A stretch of DNA of 64,000 nucleotides from an uncultured bacterium (GCA_963825135.1 CAWGRW010000010.1:32001-96000), one strand, 5' to 3'; positions 14,780 through 34,476 are shown, numbered from the stretch's first letter. The notes: generated from the sequence alone by a model not told the origin. A program made the numbers and translations.

Positions 14780-16644
14780 CTACTCGAACAATTCGGGGAG
14801 AGGGTTTCCGGTCGCGCCGTTGGGGTATGGTATTTTGAGGAGCGCCGAGACCGTAGGCGCTATGTCGGTGATGTTCACGGGACGCATGGATTCCCCCTTC
14901 TTGATGTTATGCCCGTAGAATATGAGCGGGACGTGCGTGTCGTAGTCGTAAGGCGCCCCGTGCGTCGTCCCTTTCTTGGCGTACGCAGCATTGAACTCAA
15001 TCCACGAGGGCTCCATTATCACGATGACATCGCCCGATCTCTTCCTGTTGTAGCCGTTCTCGACAAGCTGTCTCGCCCCGGTCGTGAAATCCGCCGCGTT
15101 GAGCTCGGACGCCGTTACCACGTCGGCGACACCGTCGAGCGTCATGAGAAACGAAGCTGCTTCCTTCTCCACGTTTTCGAGGGACAACCCTATGTCCCTT
15201 ATCAGGTCGCGGTCGAGGTACACCTGCTGATTATTGTATGCAAGGACGAACTCTGAGACCACCCGGTCCGAATACCTTACCGAGGTGCTTGTTGAGCCTG
15301 TTCTCGTGTTAATCGTCGTCGAGGAAATACCCGGAGGGCACTCCTATGTCCTGCAGATAGAGGGGGCCGTCCCCGACGCCGTGGTCGGCTGTGAGGAAGA
15401 CGAGGTAGTTGTCTTCTCCGATCTCCGCGTCGAGCGCGTTCAGGAGGTCGGCGATGTCGAGATCGACCCTGAGATACGCGTCTTCGACCTCGACGGACCT
15501 CGGGCCCGTAGTAATGCCCGATTATGTCGGTCGATGAAAAGCTGACGGCGAGGAAGTCCGTAACGTCGTCCTTCCCGAGCCCCTCCCCCCTGACCGCGGC
15601 AAGGGCGAAGTCCTTGGTCATCGAGTTCCCGAAGGGCGTAGCCTTTATGAGTTTCCCGTACTGCCCCTTCGTCTCCGCCTTGTTCCCGGCGAGGACGTCT
15701 TTCAGGACGTAGGGGAAGACGGGTTTTCCGTACTCCCCTGTCTCTTCGTCCCTGCCCCTGATAGATTTCTCATAGACGTTGTCGTCGGGCAGGCTCTCGC
15801 TGTAGGTAGATATGTCCCGGAGCGTATTCCACACGCCGTCTATGCCGGGCTTGTTCACGTATTTTTCGGCGGAATATTTCGCGTTGAAGTCCTCCACCCA
15901 GGCGGGGAGCGCGGGCTTCGCCCCTTCGGGCAATTTCACGCCGCGGTAATAATACGTGCTCGTGACCCACCGGCCGCTCTCGTCGTCGAGCCAGTACGCG
16001 GCGTTCCCCAGGTGCCCCGCCGGCATTATCGCGGCCCTGTCCTTGAGCGCAATGCCTATCACTTTGGATTTCATGTTCGTGGCCAGCCTCAATTCGTCCG
16101 TCACCGTCGTGGTGAGTAAATTGCGCGGCGAGAGCTGCCCGGCCTCCGCGGCCTCGCCCGCGATTCCCCCTACGAGACCGGCCGTCGTGTCGCGGGCGCA
16201 GTAGGTCTCGCCCCTCTCGGGGGCCCTGACGAACCAGTCGTTGCCGATTATGCCGTGGACGGAGGGAGCGGCGCCCGTGTATATGGACGCGTGACCGGGA
16301 CAGGTCGTAGTCGGCACGTAGCTGTATCTCGCGTCCCTGAAGCTAAACCCGTCGTCCGTGAGCCTGTTGAAGCCGTCATCGCCGTACCTGTCCCTGAACC
16401 TGTCCAGGAAATCGTACGCCATCTGGTCGACGACTATCCCCACGACGAGCCTCGGCGGCGCGTCCTCTTTGGTTTCCTCGCCGGGCGCGGGGCTCCGGGC
16501 CGGCCCCAATGTCGGATGCGGGACGTTCTGCCGGCTAGATACATGCGCCCTCTCCCGCTCCGGCTGCCTGCACGAGAGCAGTAACGAGAGCGCGAGAAAA
16601 ATTGCGATGGCGCATATAATCCGGGGTTTTATAGGGTGTTTCAT
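14780..16644 (-). CDS. PafA-type alkaline phosphatase family lipoprotein, frameshifted (~15503 and ~15270-15300)
   Basis: GIVVDQM, TCPGHASIYTG, SFSSTD..GH, LTADHG in shifted frame, HGAPYDYDTHVPL. Confidence 0.88.
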
Positions 16645-20038: not shown

Positions 20039-20836
20039 ATGGCAAAAAAAATAATCAGGGAGAATAACGTCATGAAGCTTGCGAATAAGACAGCGCTTAT
20101 CACCGGAGGCGGAACGGGTATAGGTAAGCATACCGCCCTGCTCTTCGCGCGCGAGGGGGCGAAAGTAGTCGTCACGGGGAGGAGGGAGGCGAAGCTAAAA
20201 GAGGTCGCGGAGGAGGCCGGGAGGGAAGGACTCGCCTTAGACTACGTCGTCTCGGACGTATCGAAGGAGAAGGACTGCAAGGGGGCGGTTGATTACACGA
20301 TCGGGAAATACGGAAGGATCGACATACTATTTAACAACGCGGGCGTTCTTTTCTCGGGACTCACTCACGAGACTGACGCCGTGACCTGGGAAAAGATCTT
20401 CGATACGAACGTCAAGGGGACGTTCTTCATGTCCAAATACGTCATACCGAACATGCTCGAACACGGGGGTGGCTCGATAGTGAACAATTCCTCCGTGGGA
20501 GGGCTGAACGGGTTTCCGGGCCTCGCCGCATACACGGCGTCCAAGGGCGCCGTGACCCTGCTGACGAAGACCATGGCGCTCGAGTACGCGGATAAGGGAA
20601 TAAAGGTGAACGCCATATGCCCGGGGACGATCGAAACTCCGATGGTCGTGGACGAATTCCTGGGGAAGGTGGACGACAGGGCGGCGGCCGAGAAATTCCT
20701 CCTGTCACTTCACCCCATAGGGAGGTTCGGCAAACCTGAGGAGGTAGCGCATACGGTGCTCTTCCTCTGCGACGACAACGTGGGTTTCATGACGGGGAAC
20801 ATGATCTCGATAGACGGCGGATGGAACGCGAGATAG
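20039..20836 (+). CDS. SDR family oxidoreductase, paralogue of 18700-19470
   Basis: TGGGTGIG, NNAG, YTASKG; near-colinear with the upstream SDR. Confidence 0.95.
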   Translation: MAKKIIRENNVMKLANKTALITGGGTGIGKHTALLFAREGAKVVVTGRREAKLKEVAEEAGREGLALDYVVSDVSKEKDCKGAVDYTIGKYGRIDILFNNAGVLFSGLTHETDAVTWEKIFDTNVKGTFFMSKYVIPNMLEHGGGSIVNNSSVGGLNGFPGLAAYTASKGAVTLLTKTMALEYADKGIKVNAICPGTIETPMVVDEFLGKVDDRAAAEKFLLSLHPIGRFGKPEEVAHTVLFLCDDNVGFMTGNMISIDGGWNAR

Positions 20837-20887: not shown

Positions 20888-22138
20888 TCAAGACGAGCGC
20901 CTCCCGAGAATCCTCTCTCCGGCCGAACGGGTGAGCTTCCCCGTGCGTCTCACGAGCTCGAACACGGAATACATGACCAGATGCCATGCGCTCCCCATGC
21001 CGAAGACGTGCTGGAGGAATCCGGGGAACCCGGAAACCCTGGCAAGCAGATTCTTCCCGCCGTTTTCGCCCGAATAGGAATTCCAGAGAAACCTGAGCTC
21101 TACGAGCCCGACCAGGACACCCGGGGGCCTCGTCCTCACGCCGTATTCGAAACGCGCGGCCTTCGTCACGGGGACCGAATCCAGTTTTCGGAGGACCGCA
21201 TCGGGCACGCGAGATTCCGGATACCGGTTCAGATACCTGAGCGCTTCCCCGACGGCAAGCGCCTTTCCGTGCCTCTCCGCCCCTGAGGCGACCCTCTCCC
21301 AGTCAAGCCCCTCCCCTTCCTTACGCACTATGGCGGCCGCGTCGGCCACCCACCTTATGGGCGGGACTCTATTCCACGCGACCCCGTGCGCGCATACCTG
21401 GAGGAGCTGATCGGCGGGGTCGAGCGCGAGCGCCTTTACCCCCTCTACGCTTATGCTCCGCGCCCCTTCCCAGAAAGAGTCGTCCGCGTCGGGCCGGTTG
21501 TAGCCGTGGAGGAGGTGCCAGTGGAGGTCTATGGTGAACTGCGCGGGGTTGGTGAAGTCCTGCCCGTGCCTGACTGTGAAATATTCATCGGTATAGTCCT
21601 GAACGCCCCTCTCCCCCGGCGTCCATCCGAGCCTCGAGAGGAGCTTCATATCCGTAAAGCCCTTGAGCGGGGTGACGGAAGAGCGCCATCCGAGCCCCGT
21701 GATTATATCTATCGCCTCGCGCACGCGCGAGGTCGGGACGAGCAGGTCGGCGTCCATCATCGGGCGCGTGCCCGGGTCGCTGTAATAGAGTAGCGCGAGC
21801 GCCGAGCCCTTGAGGAGTATCGCCGGCATGCCGCGGCCGTTTAACTCCTGGAGGAGTGCCGAGAGCCTGCCGTAGAGCGTCCTGTTGTTGGAGAGTGTCT
21901 TCGCGTAGACCCAGCCGAAAATGTTCATGAGCGGGTCGCCGATGCCCATGGATTTGAGATTGACGTAGAGGAGGGGGAAGAGCCTGTAGGAGCCGGGGTC
22001 GACCGCGCCCATGTCGGCCGACGACTTCCATTCAAGAAAGGCGTCCACGGCTTCATCCCCGGTCAGTATGCAGGCCTTTAGCAGCAGCTCCTGCGGGCGG
22101 GTGGGCCAGCATCCGCCGTCGTTTATCAGTCCGCTCAT
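20888..22138 (-). CDS. Uncharacterised nucleotidyltransferase family protein (PF14907-like, common in lasso/HprK-associated clusters)
   Basis: LLKGSALALLYY...RPMMDADLLV, IDLHW, RWVAD motifs. Confidence 0.9.
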   Translation of the reverse strand: MSGLINDGGCWPTRPQELLLKACILTGDEAVDAFLEWKSSADMGAVDPGSYRLFPLLYVNLKSMGIGDPLMNIFGWVYAKTLSNNRTLYGRLSALLQELNGRGMPAILLKGSALALLYYSDPGTRPMMDADLLVPTSRVREAIDIITGLGWRSSVTPLKGFTDMKLLSRLGWTPGERGVQDYTDEYFTVRHGQDFTNPAQFTIDLHWHLLHGYNRPDADDSFWEGARSISVEGVKALALDPADQLLQVCAHGVAWNRVPPIRWVADAAAIVRKEGEGLDWERVASGAERHGKALAVGEALRYLNRYPESRVPDAVLRKLDSVPVTKAARFEYGVRTRPPGVLVGLVELRFLWNSYSGENGGKNLLARVSGFPGFLQHVFGMGSAWHLVMYSVFELVRRTGKLTRSAGERILGRRSS

Positions 22139-22262
22139 ATTATCATTTCCCCGACCGGACTATTATCTATAATAGAAACGAATGTAACAAGCGAGGGATA
22201 AGGAGGAATTGTTCGTGCGGGATAGGGCTCAAATCGGATGCGCAGGCCTCTGTACAGGTTAC

Positions 22263-22406
22263 CGCGTCCGCTGTAGCAAGGTTGAGCCCCCGGTTAAGCA
22301 TCATCACGGAAATAACGGTCGGGATGATGAACGCGCCCCAGGTCGCATTCTCCCGGAACTCGCGCCTTTCCGGGTTTATGCTTTAAAGAAATTTCTTTTC
22401 GCCCAT
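22263..22406 (-). pseudogene. Degenerate precursor-peptide copy
   Basis: MGEKKFL*SINPERREFRENATWGAFIIPTVISVMMLNRGLNLATADA; in-frame TAA at 22383-22385 plus several substitutions. Confidence 0.8.
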
Positions 22407-22497
22407 TCGATTATCTCCGGCTTACCGGATATGAATCAATATAAACCGCAATACATGCGAAGAATAGCTAATACTATAATCTTCCAGGCGGCGCGGT

Positions 22498-22695
22498 TTA
22501 TGGAACAGGCATAGGAACCGCCCCATCGTTACTCTGGGCGTTCGCGGTCGTGAGGTTGAGCTTCTGGTTAAGCATCATCACGGAAATAACGGTCGGGATG
22601 ATGAATGCGCCCTTGGTCACTCTCTCCAGAAACTCGCGCCGTTCGGGATTCACGTCTTTAAGGAACCCTTTGGCGGCCTTCTCGTCGTCACTCAT
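22498..22695 (-). CDS. Putative RiPP precursor peptide, 65 aa (tail QSNDGAVPMPVP)
   Basis: GGAGG RBS; conserved RREFL...FIIPTV...TTANAQSN block shared with four other copies. Confidence 0.88.
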   Translation of the reverse strand: MSDDEKAAKGFLKDVNPERREFLERVTKGAFIIPTVISVMMLNQKLNLTTANAQSNDGAVPMPVP

Positions 22696-22815
22696 CAGTC
22701 ATCCTCCGGAAGCAGAATTTATTATAGTTTATAATATATAAACCTGCGTAAAATGCAACCAGGGACAGAAAATTTTTGTTAGTGCGAGAAAGGTACGGAC
22801 AGGGCGTCCGGCAGC

Positions 22816-23923
22816 TCAGGATTTTTTAAGGAGAGCGGATATGAATTTGTGCTTCGTTCGGTATTCGGGGTTCTCAGGGTCCCGCGCGAGGGCGAGGGCG
22901 TAGCATCGCCCGCTCTCTTCGAGCCTGCCCAGCTTGAAATAGCACGTTCCCATGGGCTCGTACGAGAACTCGCGGAATATCCTGCTGTCGTACGAGATCC
23001 TGCCGGGGTCTATACCGTCGGGATCGACCGACGCGAGACTCCCGAAGAGCGCGGCCGCCTCCCCGTATGCGCCTCCGTGCATTAGCACCATGGCCCTGAC
23101 CCAGATCATCAGGTAATTGTCCGGGAACAGTGTCTCCGCTTCTTTCAGAACCCCGGAGTAGTCCTCGTCCTTTTCGAGCAGGAGCCTGATCAGATCGTAA
23201 TACGGCTGGCAGTCCCTGGGCACGATATCCTTTCTGCCCCGGATAGTATCTATCGCCCGCCGCCACTCCCGCTCCGCCCCCTCCGTATCGCCCAGGGCCT
23301 TGAGCACGGTGCCGAGCTTGTATCTGAGAAAGGAAATATCCGGATGGTCCTCGACGTGCTTACTGCAGAAGCGGCAGGTTCCTCCTGTGCTTGCGGCCCA
23401 TCTCCCCGTCATACCCGAGGTGGTCGATCTCGAGAATGGAATTCCCTATGGCAAGCCCCTCTTCCTCCCCCACCCTCGTGACGGAAGGGAGCACGGTCTC
23501 GTGTATTATCCCCTCGAACCTTATCCTCGGGTCGTTCCGGAATATCCTGAATTCCCTGAAAGGGGTAAACCCGGTGATCGGCCGGTAATTGACCGTAAAC
23601 GCGGCGTATCCGGGCCGCGAGAGGTCGGCTTTGACGAGGGATTTATCGACCGATCTCAGCCTCTCGTCGGCGTCTATGTAGAGTATCCATTCCCCCAGGC
23701 AGCGGTCGACGGACACGTTGCGGGCGGCGGAGAAGTCGTCCCGCCACGGGAAATCGAAGAGCCTCGCGCCGTACCGGGCCGCGATCTCCTTCGTCCGGTC
23801 GGTCGATCCCGTATCGACGATGACTATCTCGTCCGCTACGTCTTTAAGCGATTCGAGACAGCCTTCGAGGAAACGCTCCTCGTTACGCACGATCATGGCG
23901 GCTGAAAGGAATATATCGTTCAA
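22816..23923 (-). CDS. GT2 glycosyltransferase with TPR-like C-terminus (SunS-like architecture), one-base frameshift at ~23362
   Basis: MIVRNEE, VDTGSTD, FSAARN, IDADE, IHE; colinear with 27146-28267 after removing one T. Confidence 0.88.
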
Positions 23924-24092
23924 TGCCGGTTAACCCTGAAACAATGATAACAGGAAGGAATCAATAAGAAACACGATATCATCTATAGATACGGAGCAGC
24001 ACGACGGCCGCTTTCATCCGGCACATGACCGGGGCCGGATATTCCAGGCCGTACCGGCCTGCCGCCCCCGCGCCTCCGTCCGTTTCCGGCTA

Positions 24093-24254
24093 TCAGTTGT
24101 CGTTACTCTGGGCGTTGGCGGTTGTGAGGTTCAATTTCTGGTTCAGCATCATCACGGATATTACGGTCGGGATGATGAACGCACCCTTGGTAACCTTCTC
24201 CAGGAACTCGCGCCTTTCGGGGTTTACGTCTTCGAGGAATTTCTTTTGGCTCAT
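24093..24254 (-). CDS. Putative RiPP precursor peptide, 53 aa (tail QSNDN), not in ORF track
   Basis: MSQKKFLEDVNPERREFLEKVTKGAFIIPTVISVMMLNQKLNLTTANAQSNDN*; GGAG RBS. Confidence 0.88.
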   Translation of the reverse strand: MSQKKFLEDVNPERREFLEKVTKGAFIIPTVISVMMLNQKLNLTTANAQSNDN

Positions 24255-24358
24255 TCGAGTATCTCCAGTTTATTGGATTGTGCGTCAATATGCCGCGGAT
24301 CCCGTTTCATTGCGCGTCTCAGCCGCTATGACACTGCACGGAATCGCAACCGGCTCTG

Positions 24359-24514
24359 TTACCCGTCGTTGCTCTGGGCGTTGGCGGTGGTGAGGTTCAA
24401 TTTCTGGTTCAGCATCATCACGGATATTACGGTAGGGATGATGAACGCGCCCTTGGTAACCTTCTCCAGGAACTCGCGCCTTTCGGGGTTTACGTCTTCG
24501 AAGAACTTCTTCAT
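24359..24514 (-). CDS. Putative RiPP precursor peptide, 51 aa (tail QSNDG; alternative GTG start at 24520), not in ORF track
   Basis: MKKFFEDVNPERREFLEKVTKGAFIIPTVISVMMLNQKLNLTTANAQSNDG*; GGAGG RBS. Confidence 0.88.
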   Translation of the reverse strand: MKKFFEDVNPERREFLEKVTKGAFIIPTVISVMMLNQKLNLTTANAQSNDG

Positions 24515-24644
24515 AGCCACGGACAGCCTCCAAACATTCGATTTATCAGAAATATATCATATCGCGGATCGACATACAAGCAATATTTGCAGAATTCCGG
24601 ATAAGTTACACACGACAACATTTCCCGGCGGCGCAGGGACTTTA

Positions 24645-26401
24645 TCAGAGGGAGCGCATGTATTCGAGGAGCTGCTGCTGGGAGCCCTCGTTGGTCCATC
24701 TGTTCTCGATCCACCGGGCCCCCTGCATGGCGCGTATGAGGTGGCTGCCGTAATTCCGGTACACGTCCCATACCGCGTCCTCTATGTCGCCCAGGCTGAC
24801 CCTGTCCCACTGCCCGTAGGCATTCCCTTCGTAGTTCGCATCTTCCTTCCCGCAGACCGGTATGACCTTACAGAAACCGGATTCGATTATCTCCCGGTGG
24901 ACCGGAATATCGGTCAGAAGCGTCGGTATGCCCAGATACATGCTTTCGCGAGGGGTGAAAGACCACCCCTCCCCGCTCGACGGGAAGACGTAACATGAAA
25001 GATTACGGTACCATTCGCCCGTCCGCTCGTCGGTCCACTCCCCCCAGGTCCATTCGACGAACGGGGAGCGTTCCATCAGGGCGACCTCGGGCGTGTACAT
25101 ACCCCGCATAAACATGGAGGAATGAACGACGAGCCTGAGCCCGGGGATTTTCCCCAGGAGATTCACGCACGCCTGATAGAGTTTGAATAAATTTTTTCTC
25201 TTGTAAGGCACGCCCAGGAACCCGATCCTGAAAACGTCGCCCCGGGGCTTGATAGAGGACCTCCTGTCGTACCTCGTGAACCCCTGCTGTATAGCGGCGA
25301 CCGGGATTCTGACGCCCGAGGATTCGAACACCCCCTTCATGTATTCATGAGGGACGATACAGCGGGCGTAATGCTCGTTAATCGGCTTTATCCAGTGACG
25401 GGGAATCTCCGACGTCTCGAACGTAGTATAAGCTACGTTGATATTTCCCTTCGAAAGCCTGTCGGTAAAAAACGGCGCCATACCGGCAACCAGGACCTTT
25501 TTGCTCGAGAGATGCTTCGTATCTTTCACGACCGTGCCGATAACGCTCGAACGGTCGTACACCGTGGTCAGGCCGTCGAAGGGCTTTTCCTTGTATATCC
25601 GGAGCACGTATATATCGTCGGGAATATTTATTCCGGCGATTTTCGAATCTATCCCGCGGCGGATACCGGCGGCAGCCGCCGCGCTCACCTTCTTCCTTGA
25701 GCCGCCCGCGTATTCGGGCGATCCCTTCTTGTGCTCCCACCTCCAGGAAGCCTCGTGGTGGTGCCTGCCGTAGTTCCCGAAATGGCAAGCTACCGCCCCC
25801 GTTACGGGACATATGCGGTCGGGGTTCGGGAGGAGCACCACGTCCCTGAGCTTTTGCCTGCAGTCGTGATACACCGTGGTTACGAGGCCGGGGCCGGTGG
25901 ATTCGAGGACGTCGTTCTCGGTCAGTATTTCGCGGCGCGACTCCCGTGCCATCTTTCTCAGTATATGGAGCAGGAACGGGTGGCCGGGCTCGCTCCCGAA
26001 CATGTAGTTCGCCACGCGGAGTCGGTCCCTGTGTCCGAGCCTCAGGGCCGTCTCCACGGTCAGCGTCGATTCCTCGCCGAACACGCAGCGGAATTCGCAA
26101 AGCCCGTCGAGCGGGTTAAGGCACTCGACGTCCATGTCCATATAAAACCCGCCCTCCCCGTAAACGACTACGATGCGGAATATATCGGTCCTCTGAATGA
26201 CCGACGCGCGGTCGTAAACCGGGAGGAACTCGGGGAAGAACCTTGTTCAACGGCGTCCCTGCACGCCTCATCGTCGTAGAATTTGTATTCCCAGGCGGGA
26301 TGGAGGGCGATGAGGTTCTCCCTGTAACGGCGGTACTTCGCCGGAACGTCCTCGTTCTTATACGTCTGGTGGATTATCCTGGGGATGGCCATGTTCGTCA
26401 C
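24645..26401 (-). CDS. Two-domain glycosyltransferase: GT32/OCH1-like DXD domain fused to GT4-like GT-B domain; frameshift at ~26242
   Basis: IPRIIHQTY...DIFR....GGFYMDMD, STGP; C-terminal YKRKN and FPSSGEGWSFTPRESM. Confidence 0.85.
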
Positions 26402-26418
26402 GAATCTCCGCCGCAGCT

Positions 26419-27153
26419 CTATCCTTCTATTCCGTCCAGCAGGCGCGACGCCTCTTCCCCGGTGTACCTGCCGTCGAGTATGCCTTTAATTATCGAGGTC
26501 GATTCCGCCGAAAGCTCGCTCGACGCGCTGAATATCTTCTCCCAGTGCTCTCTCGTGCACAGGTTGTTACCGTGATAAACGTATATATAGAGCTTCGGCA
26601 TCATCACGGGGAAAATGAGGCTCCGCTTGAAGAGCTCCCTTATGAGGTACGTATCCTCGTGCCGGAAGACTTCCTCGTACCTGAGATCGCCGCCGAGTAA
26701 CGATTTCCTGCACAGGAGCGACCCCTCCCACGGCCTCCTGTTGGATAGATAGGCCTTACCCGTACGCTCGTCATACATGAGCCAGTGAAATAGAAGGCAC
26801 GCGGGCAGCCCGCTCGCCTTGATCACGTCCATCTGGAACGAGAGCCTGTCGCGGTGAGACCAGTCGTCGTCGTCCCATTGGCAGAAATACTCCCCGCGGC
26901 ACTCCGCCAGGGAACGGTTTCTCAGTCTGCCGAGATTAAATCCTTCGGAAGAAGGCAGCTCGACTAAAATGAGATTATGATCTTCCAGGGCTCTCACGTA
27001 TTCGGCCGTCTCTCCGTCATCGCTCTCGTAGAGTATTACGAGCTCCTTCCGAGGATACGTCTGGTCCCTGAAGGACTGAACGGCCCTTTGGAGGAGCTTC
27101 TTCCTGCCGTGCGTAACGCAGAGGCACGATATGAGCGGCATGTCGTCATTCAT
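26419..27153 (-). CDS. GT2 family glycosyltransferase
   Basis: PLISCLCVT, QTYPRKELVI, GRLRN, QWDDDD, ED motif. Confidence 0.92.
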   Translation of the reverse strand: MNDDMPLISCLCVTHGRKKLLQRAVQSFRDQTYPRKELVILYESDDGETAEYVRALEDHNLILVELPSSEGFNLGRLRNRSLAECRGEYFCQWDDDDWSHRDRLSFQMDVIKASGLPACLLFHWLMYDERTGKAYLSNRRPWEGSLLCRKSLLGGDLRYEEVFRHEDTYLIRELFKRSLIFPVMMPKLYIYVYHGNNLCTREHWEKIFSASSELSAESTSIIKGILDGRYTGEEASRLLDGIEG

Positions 27154-28267
27154 GTCGGGTCCCGGTTTTTTTCAGCAGCGCGCCCAAGAATTTGCGTTTG
27201 GTTTCATACTCATGGTTGCCGGGGCGGAGCTCGGCCGCGAGCGAATAGTATTTGAGGCTCTCCCCGTATCTTCCGAGCTTGAAAAGACAGGCCGCGAGAG
27301 GCTCATAGGAAAGCTCGCCGAATATGGCGGTGTTGTACGAGAGGGGGCCTTCGACCAGGGTCTCGGGGTCAACGGAAACGAGCGATTCGAGGAGCGGGAC
27401 GGCTTCTTCGAAACGGCGGCTCCGCGCGAGCGTCACCGCCCTGGTCCATATCAGGAGATAGTTGTCGGGGAAGAGGCGGAGGGCCTCGTCGAGGAGCGCG
27501 GAGGAGTCCCCGCCCTTGTCGTTGAGAAGACAGATCATTTCATAAAACGCGTGACTGTCCTCGTGCGTCACGGTCTCTTTCCGGCGCGATATTTCCATGG
27601 CTTCCGTCCACGTCTTTTCGGCCGCGTCCGGGTCTCCGAGGCCCTTCAGGGCCACGCCCAGCTGCCACCTGAGATACATCCTCTGCGGCTCGTTCTCTAT
27701 CTGTTTTATGAGCAGGGGGAGGTTCCTCCCGTGCTTTTGCAGGAGGTCCCCGTCGTAGCCGGTGTGGTCTATGGCGAGGGGGCAGTCGCCGATGCCCATC
27801 CCGTTCTCTTCCATGAAGACCTCGATCGAGGGGAATATGGTCTCGTGAATGGTGTTGCAGAACCGTATGCGGGGGTCGTTCCTGAAAATCCGGTATTCCT
27901 TGTACGCGGTATAGCCACCTATGGGGTGGAACCTGACGGTATAGACGGCAATCTTCGTGTCGGAAAGTATCCGCGTTACCTCTTCCCTGCTCACGGGTCT
28001 GAGCCTCTCGTCAGCGTCTATGTAGAGTATCCATTCGCCGCGGCAGTGATCGAGGGACTCGTTGCGTGCGGCTGAGAAATCGTCCCGCCAGGGGAAATCG
28101 AAGACCCTCGCGCCGTACCGGGAAGCGATCTCCTTCGTCCGGTCGGTCGATCCCGTATCGACGATGACTATCTCGTCGACCACGTCCCTGATGGATTCGA
28201 GACAGCCTTCGAGGAATCGCTCTTCGTTGCGCACGATCATGGAGGCCGAAAAGATTATATCGCTCAA
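27146..28267 (-). CDS. GT2 glycosyltransferase with TPR-like C-terminus (SunS-like architecture)
   Basis: TTG start inferred from the paralogue; MIVRNEE, VDTGSTD, IDADE, IHE, then helical repeats. Confidence 0.9.
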   Translation of the reverse strand: MSDIIFSASMIVRNEERFLEGCLESIRDVVDEIVIVDTGSTDRTKEIASRYGARVFDFPWRDDFSAARNESLDHCRGEWILYIDADERLRPVSREEVTRILSDTKIAVYTVRFHPIGGYTAYKEYRIFRNDPRIRFCNTIHETIFPSIEVFMEENGMGIGDCPLAIDHTGYDGDLLQKHGRNLPLLIKQIENEPQRMYLRWQLGVALKGLGDPDAAEKTWTEAMEISRRKETVTHEDSHAFYEMICLLNDKGGDSSALLDEALRLFPDNYLLIWTRAVTLARSRRFEEAVPLLESLVSVDPETLVEGPLSYNTAIFGELSYEPLAACLFKLGRYGESLKYYSLAAELRPGNHEYETKRKFLGALLKKTGTRHE

Positions 28268-28403
28268 TTCCTCATCACCAGGATTAAATAATAACCGGAG
28301 AGGACGCGTACCAAAACGGCGGGGAACAGGAAATATAAAACTCGGGGGACGGGACGCGTGCCCGTGAAAAGCGGATTGCCGGGTCACAAAAGGCGTCCGG
28401 GCT

Positions 28404-29021
28404 TTAACCGCAGTAAGGCTGATCTTCCGGCAAAAGGAGCTTACGAATGAAGAACTTCGAATCCGGGGCAAGCGTGCTGCCCAGAGGAATTCCGTTTGCG
28501 AAGTAAAATCCGGTCTCGCCGGAAGGCAGGAGGTCGTACGTATGACCGGCCTCGTACCGGACCTTCTCTATCGATAACAGCACCGCTCCGTCCAATGTGT
28601 CGCCCGGCAAGAGATCGCCTGCTTCCCCGGCGTCCGTGGTAGGATGCCCCGGAGACACGAACAATTCTCTGCCGTCATTCAAAACCAGACGACAAAGGGT
28701 ATGGTCTCCCGGAACCGACGCCTTCGACACGAGCTCTATCGGTCTTACGACCTTGTTTCCGTTCGAGTCGAGGGTGAATACCGGCATCCCCGGCCTTAAA
28801 TCGACGATGGAAACGTCCCCGTCCGGGGTCGAGATCAGGGTCGCCGCAGACAGGCACGGCGCTGTCCCGTTGCTCTGGGCGTTTGCCGTCGTGAGATGGA
28901 GCTTCTGATTGAGCATCATCACGGAAATGACCGTCGGTATAACGAACGCGCCCTTCGTAAGCTTCTCGAGGAACTCGCGCCTCTCGGGATTAACGCCGTC
29001 CAGAAACCTTTTGTCACTCAT
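28404..29021 (-). CDS. Precursor peptide fused to a C-terminal Hint (Hedgehog/intein) domain
   Basis: aa 1-55 match the precursor family; Hint motifs C56LSAATLISTPDG, SPGHP, TYDL, FYFANGIPLGS. Confidence 0.9.
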   Translation of the reverse strand: MSDKRFLDGVNPERREFLEKLTKGAFVIPTVISVMMLNQKLHLTTANAQSNGTAPCLSAATLISTPDGDVSIVDLRPGMPVFTLDSNGNKVVRPIELVSKASVPGDHTLCRLVLNDGRELFVSPGHPTTDAGEAGDLLPGDTLDGAVLLSIEKVRYEAGHTYDLLPSGETGFYFANGIPLGSTLAPDSKFFIRKLLLPEDQPYCG

Positions 29022-29059
29022 GATACGCCCCCTTTATATTACAATACAGACTGCGACGA

Positions 29060-29896
29060 TTATATCACAGACATTTTTTCCTGTAAACCCGAGACGGCCC
29101 CATCGAGATCGCCTATATAAAGCAGATAGCAATGAGCGCTGTCTATCAGCCCGCATAGCCCGCCGATTTTCAAATGGTCGTTTGTCTCCGAAAGGAAGCT
29201 CATGGGCATAATTTTCTCGACCATGCGGTATTTGGGGCACTCCTCTATACGCGTCTCTCCGCCGTGATTCCGTACGAGATAGAAGACGGCGCTGACTTCC
29301 CCCTCGTCGATCTTCCAGGGGCGTCCCGCGTCGAGGGGCGTAAACGAGTACATCTTCTGTTTATTGTAGGTGATGTTGTACGGGAGCGATTCGAAGGGCG
29401 GCTTCATTTTCGGCAAAAGACCCGTGCTCTCCTGTTTGATGTTGAACCGCCTCGGGAACGGTATGGCCTTGCAGTCCCGGACAAGCGCGAGCTCGTCCCC
29501 GACGACCCGAAATCCCGCCAGCACCAGACTGACCATGAGCGTGGTCTTCCCGGCTCCCTTGTCCCCGACGACAAGGAACCTCTTCCCGTTCCATTCCGCG
29601 CACCCGGCGTGAATGCGTATCCTGTCCGTGATCCCGGAAAGCACCTCCTTGTGCATGAGCCACTGGAGGTTGAAGATCGTGGCGCTGAGGTCGCCCGAGG
29701 AGTGGCGGACCTCGCCGCTTCTCAGGACTTCATAAACGCCGTCCCTGACCCTCAATTCATAGAGGGCCTCGTTCGTGACGGGATAGTCCTGCTCCGCGTC
29801 GTGCACTATGAAATCGAGAAGGCGCGCCGATTCTTCGTCTTCGGTGCGTATGGTGAATGCGGTGTCGAGCAGTGTATGCCTGCGTTCGTGAATTAT
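29060..29896 (-). CDS. HprK-related P-loop kinase (start probably ATA at 29896; GTG 29806 in ORF track)
   Basis: IHAGCA, GDKGAGKTT, VGDE, PFPR motifs. Confidence 0.85.
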   Translation of the reverse strand: MIHERRHTLLDTAFTIRTEDEESARLLDFIVHDAEQDYPVTNEALYELRVRDGVYEVLRSGEVRHSSGDLSATIFNLQWLMHKEVLSGITDRIRIHAGCAEWNGKRFLVVGDKGAGKTTLMVSLVLAGFRVVGDELALVRDCKAIPFPRRFNIKQESTGLLPKMKPPFESLPYNITYNKQKMYSFTPLDAGRPWKIDEGEVSAVFYLVRNHGGETRIEECPKYRMVEKIMPMSFLSETNDHLKIGGLCGLIDSAHCYLLYIGDLDGAVSGLQEKMSVI

Positions 29897-30150
29897 TTGA
29901 CCAGTCCTTCCTGAATGAGCGTATTGAGGCAGTCGGCGACTTCTTTCTCCGGGTCCTCCGGGAGCTGATACGCCTCCCTCACGACCGCCGTGATATCGGC
30001 CAGAGAGTTTGTGCCCGTGCAGGCCTCGAGCACGAGCACCGCGGTCTTGTTGAGGTAGTGGACCTTATCCTTCTCGCTCTGGTAGATGACGTAGCCGTCC
30101 TCGACCTCGTTTATGTCTATGCCATCGGCTATTTTGGGGTATTCGCTCAT
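29893..30150 (-). CDS. PqqD-family RiPP recognition element
   Basis: 85 aa; HYLNKTAVLVLEAC.G....I.......Y...........L..EGLV. Confidence 0.93.
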   Translation of the reverse strand: MSEYPKIADGIDINEVEDGYVIYQSEKDKVHYLNKTAVLVLEACTGTNSLADITAVVREAYQLPEDPEKEVADCLNTLIQEGLVK

Positions 30151-30288
30151 CGAAGTACGTCCTGCCTCGTTTCGGTATTTGTAAAAACAGAGTATTTATT
30201 ATCCCGAATTGCGGCGGGACTTTCAAGACCGCGGAGGAATCACATGCGAACCTGCATCGGGAATTTTCCGAAATCGGTCATCAGAAAC

Positions 30289-30334
30289 AAAAAAAACCCC
30301 GGAACGCCTCTATGGGCGCTCCGGGGCTTTCTTT
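30289..30334 (-). terminator. Intrinsic terminator downstream of the small lipopeptide gene
   Basis: Minus strand GCCCCGGAGCGCC-CATAGA-GGCGTTCCGGGG-T8. Confidence 0.8.
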
Positions 30335-30366
30335 ACATTTAATAATATCTTCCGGTCTATTAAAGC

Positions 30367-33167: not shown

Positions 33168-34476
33168 ATGAGCGGCAATAGGAAATGGATAAAGAGCCTC
33201 AGGCTCGACTTCAGATACGAGAGCTACAATATAGCGCTCGTATCCCAGACCCGTATCGAGATCATCCCCCCGCCATCCGATCCGGTAGATCAGGCGGATG
33301 ATTACAACGGATACTATGTAAAGCTAACCGACGGAGAGGGACGTGTTTTCTACGTCCAGCGGCTGCAGAACCCTTTCCGCACCGAAACCGAGTCGTACGG
33401 CGACGATGCGCCCGGCCCGATCACTTACGAAAGCCTCAAAGACCCGGACCTGACGTTCTCGATCCTGATTCCCGACCCCGGGGCCGTTTTTACCCTCGAA
33501 ATCATAAACAACCCGCTGCTGCCGGAGATGTTTTTTAGAATAGCGAGGCAGTCGTTCGCATTTACGGTCGACCCCGCGGAAGTAATACTGCGGCCGATGG
33601 CAGTCGCCAGGATTGTTGAGAACGGGGCAGTCCTGGGGAAGGAGAAGATCGTCGATCACGGGAAGGACAATGAATGCTGGAATATCTCGATTCTCGCGGA
33701 AGGCTACAAGGCGGAAGAAATCCCTAAATTCGTTTCCGATGCGAATAGCTTCATAAACGTATTTAAGAATTTCGCGCCGTTCAACGAATTCTGGGAGAAG
33801 ACAAACGTATATATTTTAAAAGTCGCGTCCACGGACAGCGGCGCTGACTTGCCGGCTCAATGTCAGGGGGGAAGTCCCCCGGTCGATGTGCGAACTTATT
33901 TTAACGCCAGCTTCTGCGGCGCCGCTCAACCAGAAGCGTCTCCTGGTCGTGGATCAGAGGACGGCGAAAAAGGTTTGGGATATGTGGATTCCGCAGGCGC
34001 ATATCGCGTTTGCCATGGTAAACAGCGCGATCTACGGCGGGTCAGGGGGGAATGTCCCGGTTTTTTCGACCAACTCCCTCTCCGCCCTTATCGGCATTCA
34101 CGAGCTCGGGCATAGCTTATTCAAGCTGGCGGACGAATACGAATCGCCCTATATCAACGATAACCCGGATAACTATCCGAATTTAACCAGTCAGACCGCT
34201 CCGTCGCAAATAAAATGGAAGGACTTGATAGCACCCACGACCCCCGTCCCGACGTCGAGGAACCAATGTCCGGGCGGAAACCCCGTTTCCCACCCCGTAC
34301 CTGAGGGCACAGTGGGGCTTTTCGAGGGAGGGCTTTACAAGTCCTGTAATGTGTTCAGATCCGAGAAGAACTGCCTGATGCGTGATTTCGGGAAGAAGCG
34401 GTTCTGCGCGGTGTGCACAAAAACCATCCGCAATAAGCTTTCGGAGTTATTGCAGATCGACGTGCCTATCGTTTAG
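33168..34476 (+). CDS. M64 (IgA peptidase-like) zinc metallopeptidase, frameshift at ~33921
   Basis: LAEGY, HELGHSLFKLADEY, GLFEGG, CLMR..FCAVC. Confidence 0.85.

Follow-up and report, generated by a model that had tools for sequence, protein, structure and literature searches.

A candidate cluster for phosphorylated and glycosylated linear peptides with twin-arginine-type leaders in an uncultured bacterium

Gene content of the locus

We analysed a 64,000-nucleotide stretch of DNA from an uncultured bacterium (GCA_963825135.1 CAWGRW010000010.1:32001-96000), here called the window. From 30150 to 20888 it carries a cluster of minus-strand genes in which a discrete RiPP (ribosomally made and post-translationally modified peptide) recognition element (RRE), an HprK-related kinase, glycosyltransferases and a nucleotidyltransferase surround several copies of a short precursor peptide, one of them fused to a Hint domain (precursor::Hint). 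Together they form a real and conserved set, which is probably a peptide-modification pathway. The order of the genes is as first noted, and they are listed here in the direction of transcription, followed by the other features of the locus (aa, amino acids; TPR, tetratricopeptide repeat).

29893..30150, minus strand: discrete RRE of the PqqD family, 85 aa (PF05402, E 8e-10)
29060..29893, minus strand: HprK-related P-loop kinase, about 277 aa (TIGR04352, E 3e-16; Hpr_kinase_C weak, E 0.006)
28404..29021, minus strand: precursor with C-terminal Hint domain, 205 aa (Hint_2, E 2e-5, and intein N-terminal matches)
27146..28267, minus strand: GT2-TPR glycosyltransferase 1, about 373 aa (Pfam/NCBIfam; solved relatives)
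26419..27153, minus strand: GT2 glycosyltransferase, 244 aa (PF00535)
24645..26392, minus strand: GT32/GT4 two-domain glycosyltransferase, about 582 aa in relatives (GT4 matched here, the GT32 half seen on an intact relative)
24359..24514, minus strand: short precursor, 51 aa
24093..24254, minus strand: short precursor, 53 aa
22816..23923, minus strand: GT2-TPR glycosyltransferase 2, frameshifted here and intact in other genomes of the genus
22498..22695, minus strand: third short precursor, N-terminally longer (65 aa), of the type found after the second GT2-TPR in relatives
22201..22406, minus strand: decayed precursor copy, with a degenerate A-N-A-x-S region
20888..22138, minus strand: PF14907 nucleotidyltransferase (PsmN/LppN family), 416 aa (E 2e-39)
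29059..29087, minus strand: sigma-70-like promoter match upstream of precursor::Hint, 11/12 with TG (a consensus match only)
30288..30335, minus strand: intrinsic terminator-like hairpin of 20 pairs upstream of PqqD, parting the cluster from upstream genes
20039-20836, plus strand: convergent SDR bounding the cluster

This set of co-oriented genes, with its RRE, kinase, precursors, four glycosyltransferase genes and PF14907 nucleotidyltransferase bounded by the SDR and the terminator, had been proposed in an earlier reading of the DNA (the original prediction), and was borne out by open reading frame (ORF) calls, Pfam and the hairpin. All five of the precursor loci it counted are present; four are intact, one of these being the Hint fusion, and the fifth is a pseudogene with an in-frame TAA at codon 8. 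The genome, which is 94% complete, holds a single copy each of the RRE (its only PqqD match), the kinase and the nucleotidyltransferase. The proposed lack of a cyclase also held, with neither a cyclase nor a B2 protease in a Pfam scan of the locus. No ORF for an MsbA-like ABC exporter was found between the flanking SDR and methyltransferase or among the recurring families of related loci, and no dedicated SipW-like peptidase was found at the locus or recurring in related loci.

Two glycosyltransferase genes are frameshifted in the present assembly: at 26248 the GT32/GT4 gene has 2 surplus bases, and at 23364 the second GT2-TPR gene has 1. The extra bases at each position are missing from the contigs of three out of four runs, those at 26248 are also missing from a 96%-identical contig, and the ORFs of relatives are whole. 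Because near-identical contigs lack these bases, we read the frameshifts as assembly errors or private lesions. A phosphatase-like gene (14780-16644) and a peptidase M64 gene (33168-34476) of the window are likewise frameshift-split, which suggests residual indel errors in the assembly.

Precursor peptides and their Hint-fused forms

The precursors are 51-70 aa long, occur in several copies, and combine a near-invariant leader with a hypervariable tail. The leader holds an RRxFL motif, a hydrophobic region with FxxPxV and an A-N-A site; after it come x-Ser-Asn and a tail that is variable and very short. Among 229 distinct sequences, FxxPx[V/I] was found in all 229, and 228 passed a TatFind-type rule of our own for an RRxFL motif, an uncharged stretch and an AxA site. 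Over 41 leader codons of 79 precursor genes dN/dS was 0.042 (pS 0.67, pN 0.069), so that the precursors are under strong purifying selection and are not chance ORFs. The genome encodes TatC and one signal peptidase I; in the S26 and S24 families it has one S26 peptidase away from the locus and four S24 proteins of the UmuD/repressor type. This anatomy is that of a RiPP precursor with a leader that also resembles a signal for twin-arginine translocation (Tat) with a signal-peptidase site. The twin-arginine-type leader with its AxA site may thus explain why the cluster has neither a peptidase nor an exporter.

The precursor family had no match in Pfam or NCBIfam, and no relative among solved structures. 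In the Atlas, precursors fell in unnamed clusters, the nearest named ones being Tat-signal families at 0.85-0.87, which we treat as a lead only. Sources of close relatives are named Dadabacteria/Thermodesulfobacteriota. Tails within the family are Pro-rich and some are collagen-like (L039, L043, L046). Orphan precursors also occur in genomes that hold the cluster elsewhere, and in two genomes short orphan precursors whose tails are hydrophobic border a convergent 2-oxoglutarate-Fe(II) oxygenase (L035:8676-10196, L058:2795-3807).

The leader can also be read differently, with RRxFL as an enzyme-docking helix, the conserved Thr/Ser-rich stretch before Ser-Asn as the core, and the modified peptide staying in the cytoplasm. 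The atypical Tat motif and its Lys-Arg variants fit such a peptide, as does a leader conservation far above that of ordinary signal peptides. However, the tripartite anatomy of a signal is kept in distant families that otherwise differ in sequence, the clusters share no recurring exporter or peptidase of another kind, and relatives of the Hint domain occur on proteins with hydrophobic N-termini. We consider a cytoplasmic product quite improbable.

The A-N-A-type site was found in 225 of the 229 precursors, and the four non-matching sequences were excluded from position counts. Position +1 after A-N-A varies over 11 residues, +2 is Ser in 219 of the 225 and +3 is Asn in 190. The cores after A-N-A are short (median 8 residues, range 4-54), with tails rich in Pro, Gly and Asp; Cys occurs in 3 of 203 short tails. 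Everything through Ser-Asn is near-invariant, which, set against cores with a median of 8 residues and a minimum of 4, would also suit a peptide that receives the same modification and is never released, its leader serving as a membrane anchor and its short Ser-bearing end as the primer of an oligosaccharide presented at the cell envelope. Chain-elongating glycosyltransferases are present, and distant clusters further encode a fucosyltransferase-like or a Stealth enzyme, both of which are in keeping with a displayed glycan. Yet A-N-A is invariant while the next residue is free to vary, as at a signal-peptidase site, and the hydrophobic stretch seems too brief to anchor the peptide stably. We regard an unreleased peptide as distinctly unlikely.

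In the precursor::Hint of the window, leader, A-N-A and x-Ser-Asn are followed by four residues and then by Cys1 of the Hint domain. C56, S123, H126 and D163 are invariant in 22/22 aligned fusions; in the block nomenclature of Hint domains (block B, block F) these are Cys1, SxxH and the block F Asp. All 22 lack the terminal His-Asn, and the domain ends x-G/A-S-T plus a tail of 10-30 residues. The missing C-terminal His-Asn and C-extein nucleophile (22/22) set the domain apart from splicing inteins. A structural model of low confidence (predicted local distance difference test, pLDDT, 49) matched the Hint fold with a best Z of 10.3, a root-mean-square deviation (rmsd) of 3.0 and 125 aligned residues. 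With Cys1, the block B Ser/Thr and His, the block F Asp and the Hint fold, the domain has the features of an N-cleaving Hint of the bacterial intein-like (BIL) or hedgehog-like type. Because the catalytic residues are invariant and the terminal His-Asn is missing, the domain points to N-terminal cleavage only. Just 2-6 residues separate x-Ser-Asn from Cys1, so the product of the predicted cleavage would match the short precursors in length. The stricter idea that it yields the exact cores of stand-alone precursors is weak: lengths agree, and only 3 of 21 pre-Cys tails are identical. Some Dadabacteria are said to make sterols. In the present genome (94% complete) neither oxidosqualene cyclase nor squalene epoxidase was found; hedgehog-like sterol ligation was dropped for this genome, and plain hydrolysis is therefore the default outcome of the predicted cleavage.

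Of 21 genomes surveyed, 12 have the Hint fusion, and six clusters that are complete in all other respects lack it. A further precursor::Hint lies at G000:C9:2160763-2161383 (-) with no tailoring genes adjoining, and has a frameshifted duplicate at C17:1134-1754. The C9 copy adjoins a protein that ends in an IPVL-type sorting motif, and a polysaccharide-export locus lies some 4 kb away. In each of the 30 longer proteins found to be related to the window Hint (P0192-P0221) the domain stands at the C-terminus, in most of them behind a hydrophobic N-terminus. They represent a Hint subfamily, 40-56% identical to that of the window, mostly with a signal or membrane anchor N-terminally; Cys-Pro-Ile often precedes the Hint, and partner domains include Gmad2, IPT/TIG, PEGA and peptidoglycan-binding. 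This subfamily is possibly an undescribed module for autoprocessing or anchoring of surface proteins.

Tailoring enzymes and their co-occurrence with the precursors

Residue N34 of the RRE is invariant in 14 of 14 relatives. In the linear phosphopeptide (LPP) pathway of Bacillota (Popov et al. 2026; PMC13381572), N33 of LppB holds the leader proline, and by our own counting N34 would correspond to it by position. The LppB structures were not among the matches of a solved-structure search. Prediction of an RRE and precursor complex gave a median of 0.26 against a mark of 0.32, and was counted neither way. In the kinase, the His, Walker A and acidic pair (DE motif) are matched in 24 related loci; PsmK of pseudomycoidin requires an Asp-Asp pair (PMC6993621). 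The first common start codon of the kinase gene is at 29806, yet homology reaches 29890, with 276-aa alignments to relatives; because of this extension the gene probably begins at a non-canonical codon adjoining the stop of PqqD.

The nucleotidyltransferase had been assigned to PF14907 in the original prediction, and this was upheld at E 2e-39. Its D129 and D131 are invariant in 16/16, and its model (pLDDT 83) shows a pol-beta-type fold that aligned with ANT(2'')-Ia (Z 13.1, rmsd 3.5, 166 aligned) and MenT1 (Z 16.1). PsmN has itself been modelled on ANT(2'')-Ia, and needs its DxD motif to put hexose on phospho-Ser (PMC6993621).

The solved relatives of the GT2 enzyme are weak and are chain-elongating enzymes; glycan elongation is its probable role. 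The best solved relatives of GT2-TPR 1 are GmaR (E 2.5e-30), 7msk (E 5e-16) and SunS (E 6e-15), which we take to be enzymes that glycosylate proteins or peptides, and GT2-TPR 1 is predicted to be of this type. The GT32/GT4 enzyme had no match in the solved-structure search. A wider search with it returned 27 metagenome loci, of which 12 matched the GT32 half only and showed neither precursor nor RRE, so the GT32 half alone is not a marker of the system.

The original prediction had staked itself on finding homologues of the precursor together with these enzymes in other genomes, and they are found together. The precursor matched 21 of 120 genomes of the class, and dropping one weak match with three stops left 20. 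At E 1e-30, GT2-TPR was detected in exactly these 20 genomes and in none of the other 100. The kinase was found in 23 genomes, 20 of them close and 3 at 21-25% identity, and the RRE in 21, 20 of them close. Precursor, GT2-TPR, close kinase and close RRE occur together in 19 genomes. The two exceptions are explained by a contig break (in G075, RRE and kinase lie on a contig that ends 13 codons into the precursor) or by an incomplete genome (G098, 82% complete). Among 21 other genomes, 15 have all seven components on a single stretch and 2 have them split over two contigs; in 4 the set is incomplete.

Beyond the class, a Syntrophobacteraceae genome holds the full set, rearranged. A leader profile search matched 3 of 401 genomes in the phylum of that genome, all adjoining RRE and kinase genes, 7 of 209 in a second class (that of G121) and 1 of 122 in the class of G120. 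At five new second-class loci, kinase and GT2-TPR adjoin the precursor in 5/5. The GT2 and GT32/GT4 pair was not found at these five loci, which makes these enzymes accessory: the core of the system is RRE, kinase, precursor and usually GT2-TPR, with the other glycosyltransferases and the Hint domain as accessory parts.

Could the peptide be merely phosphorylated or nucleotidylated, as in LPP, with the glycosyltransferases as passengers that act on lipopolysaccharide, capsule or another protein? GT2 and GT32/GT4 resemble glycan elongators, LPP clusters sit in capsule loci (PMC13381572), and kinase cassettes of a sister family (below) lie in polysaccharide-export loci with no GT2-TPR match. Against this, GT2-TPR tracks the precursor in 20/20 genomes and directly follows it in two classes, the flanks of the Dadabacteria clusters change from genome to genome with no conserved polysaccharide locus, and G121 keeps RRE, precursor and glycosyltransferases in a genome where the kinase was not found. 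Flagellin, which the original prediction had named as another possible target, is an unlikely one, with none found in the genome. We give passenger glycosyltransferases little weight.

Several other loci came to light. The G120 locus (L059:4890-14186) is a rearranged full cluster with three additions: a GT2, a GT32 and a GT10 gene that resembles fucosyltransferases and also has a weak sulfotransferase match. The G121 locus (L078:9680-15828) has RRE, a precursor without the +2 Ser, GT2-TPR, GT2, GT32/GT4, an extra GT32 and a Stealth phosphotransferase. Replacement of kinase and nucleotidyltransferase by this Stealth enzyme is a lead only, from a single incomplete genome with a short PF14907 fragment elsewhere. 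In the sister family (L121:6221-9230, L122:5574-7196, L123:1827-4505) a distant twin-arginine-leader peptide with YxxP is accompanied by kinase and PqqD, and in two of the three loci also by a nucleotidyltransferase and Wza/Wzc-like polysaccharide-export genes. An RRE-kinase fusion, a nucleotidyltransferase and a 60-aa twin-arginine-leader peptide with YxxP lie at L118:7494-10124 (G416). A different RiPP-like cluster at L125:383-4880 (G014) encodes PqqD, a ThiF-YcaO fusion, a transglutaminase-like B2 protein, a PF14907 nucleotidyltransferase and an ABC transporter. Two genomes of the genus also encode an MbnB/TglH/ChrH (PF05114) enzyme, a few kb past the cluster (L033:18417-19340).

Relation to known systems and proposed pathway

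The closest parallel is LPP, for which cyclase-free production of linear phosphopeptides by an RRE, an HprK kinase and an NTP transferase has been demonstrated experimentally (PMC13381572). In view of this precedent from 2026, the original wording of a new RiPP class is not supported; the glycosyltransferase block and the Hint-fused precursors are the novel features. Both systems have a discrete RRE, a kinase of HprK-like type, an NTP transferase, no cyclase, and one or several precursors whose N-terminus is conserved and whose C-terminus varies. They also share an aromatic-x-x-P-x-V docking motif, and the LppA core begins AQSN, with Ser3 phosphorylated by LppK (PMC13381572); window precursors likewise contain A-Q-S-N. 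In contrast to LPP, the window cluster has no LppS peptidase or LppD ABC exporter, its leader is twin-arginine-type with a hydrophobic region and FxxP in place of YxxP, its hosts are Gram-negative, and it has dedicated GT2-TPR, GT2 and GT32/GT4 enzymes and Hint fusions. The LPP leader consensus YxxPxVLxHQxIxFETxxS matched 0 of 229 precursors; a relaxed [HND]Qx[IL]x[FLI]xT matched 221 of 229, a pattern we fitted ourselves and which indicates resemblance only. Because LppS, LppD and the leader consensus are missing, we do not class the cluster as LPP; judged by gene content and motifs, it appears to work like the LPP pathway.

An HprK-type Ser kinase is likewise shared with the lasso peptides paeninodin (PadeK) and pseudomycoidin (PsmK/PsmN) (PMC6993621, PMC8498205), as is an enzyme of PF14907 type that has a DxD motif and folds like ANT(2''). 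Ser-phosphate-hexose chemistry would be expected here. Unlike those phospho(glycosyl) lasso clusters, the present one has no macrolactam cyclase (C), B2 protease or ABC exporter, and its cores are too short to thread. We hold it very improbable that this is a lasso cluster with cyclase and protease elsewhere in the genome, or a decayed remnant of one. RRE, kinase and nucleotidyltransferase are indeed lasso tailoring families (PMC8498205), and the orphan precursor::Hint has an asparagine synthetase some 20 kb away. But the search of the remaining genome that the original prediction called for found neither lasso gene in the 94% complete genome: no B2 protease (PF13471) scored over cut-off, and the sole full-length asparagine synthetase has an ordinary Cys-start amidotransferase domain. 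Many cores, at 4-8 residues, are too short for ring and tail, and the strong purifying selection on the precursor also speaks against decay.

Other systems are more distant. The HPr-rel-A cassette (TIGR04352, TIGR04353) also sets a PqqD-like chaperone and an HprK-related kinase beside a nucleotidyltransferase, and no substrate family in NCBIfam matched the precursors. The window cluster differs in its evident precursor family and its glycosyltransferase block, and both proteins scored below the curated cut-offs (59.6 bits against 200 for TIGR04352, 29 against 35 bits for TIGR04353). Glycocins (SunS) and GmaR share the GT2-TPR architecture. TIGR04195, the SunS family, reached 67 bits against a cut-off of 350, and unlike a glycocin cluster the window cluster has no double-glycine leader, peptidase-ABC transporter or disulfide core, and does have an RRE and a kinase. 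The Hint domain keeps the Cys1, Ser/Thr-x-x-His and block F Asp of intein-like and hedgehog-type Hint domains without the terminal His-Asn, and differs from them in being fused behind a peptide-precursor leader. We found no description of a Tat-leader system with RRE, kinase and glycosyltransferases in the literature searched, which reached few subscription papers. The cluster is probably an undescribed Gram-negative counterpart of the linear phosphopeptide family, with phosphorylated, sugar-decorated and secreted peptides as its products.

We propose RRE-guided phosphorylation and glycosylation of a linear peptide in the cytoplasm, followed by Tat export and release by signal peptidase I, and put the probability of this reading at roughly 0.55. 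Gene content, motifs and conservation are what we observed; from them and from the characterized relatives we infer every reaction. By analogy with LPP and lasso systems, the RRE would bind FxxPxV of the leader, a variant of the YxxPxV docking motif. The kinase would phosphorylate the Ser of x-Ser-Asn right after A-N-A, as LppK does Ser3 of AQSN, and the nucleotidyltransferase, like PsmN, may cap or activate the Ser phosphate for sugar attachment. Family membership suggests that GT2-TPR puts the first sugar on Ser/Thr, and that GT2 and GT32/GT4 lengthen the glycan. Judging from the motifs and from the missing cluster exporter and peptidase, the twin-arginine-type leader would direct the peptide, once modified, to export by Tat; signal peptidase I would then cleave after A-N-A and free a core of about 4-30 residues. 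In the accessory Hint fusions, an N-S acyl shift at Cys1 could free an equally long core, either by hydrolysis or through ligation to a nucleophile.

Several observations weigh against this proposal. In LPP, deletion of LppN gave no visible effect (PMC13381572); the authors saw no LppN activity and suspected a missing partner enzyme. Further Ser/Thr residues occur in just 97 of the 203 short tails, which may leave the kinase and GT2-TPR in competition for a single residue. Second-class precursors do not retain the +2 Ser and have a Ser further along or near the C-terminus instead, and the phosphosite prediction is thus limited to the present lineage. The twin-arginine motif is atypical, with Glu preceding RR and Lys-Arg in several distant members, and the TatFind-type rule was applied without a shuffled control. 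Two glycosyltransferase genes are frameshifted as assembled. The genomes compared are kin and their counts are not independent, so the distant cases weigh more; at the five second-class loci, some of which lie on incomplete stretches, RRE was found in only 3/5, the nucleotidyltransferase in only 2/5, and GT2 and GT32/GT4 beside none of the precursors, and the G261 locus showed no GT2-TPR.

The original claim that these enzymes make a phospho- and glyco-decorated Ser/Thr peptide thus stands in part: the peptides belong with the enzymes in a single conserved unit, of which a decorated linear peptide is the best reading, without the status of a new class. A more ambitious proposal, which we hold to be unlikely, is a RiPP class with its RRE docking motif inside a twin-arginine signal and a core bearing a Ser-linked phospho-oligosaccharide built by dedicated glycosyltransferases, some copies being ligated through the Hint thioester to a cell-surface nucleophile (hedgehog-like anchoring) or to their own new N-terminus (cyclase-free ring closure).

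PF14907 nucleotidyltransferases and HprK-related kinases occur in many clusters without a known final product. The window cluster is short and self-contained, and supplies candidate partner enzymes, a precisely predicted site and many natural variants of the core, which makes the pathway testable by simple co-expression. If the proposed phosphorylation, glycosylation and export are true, RiPP logic would extend to leaders with a second role as Tat signals, phospho-glycosylated peptides would become accessible by a tolerant route, a Hint autoprocessing domain would be added as a precursor module, and a biosynthetic product would be assigned to an uncultured lineage.

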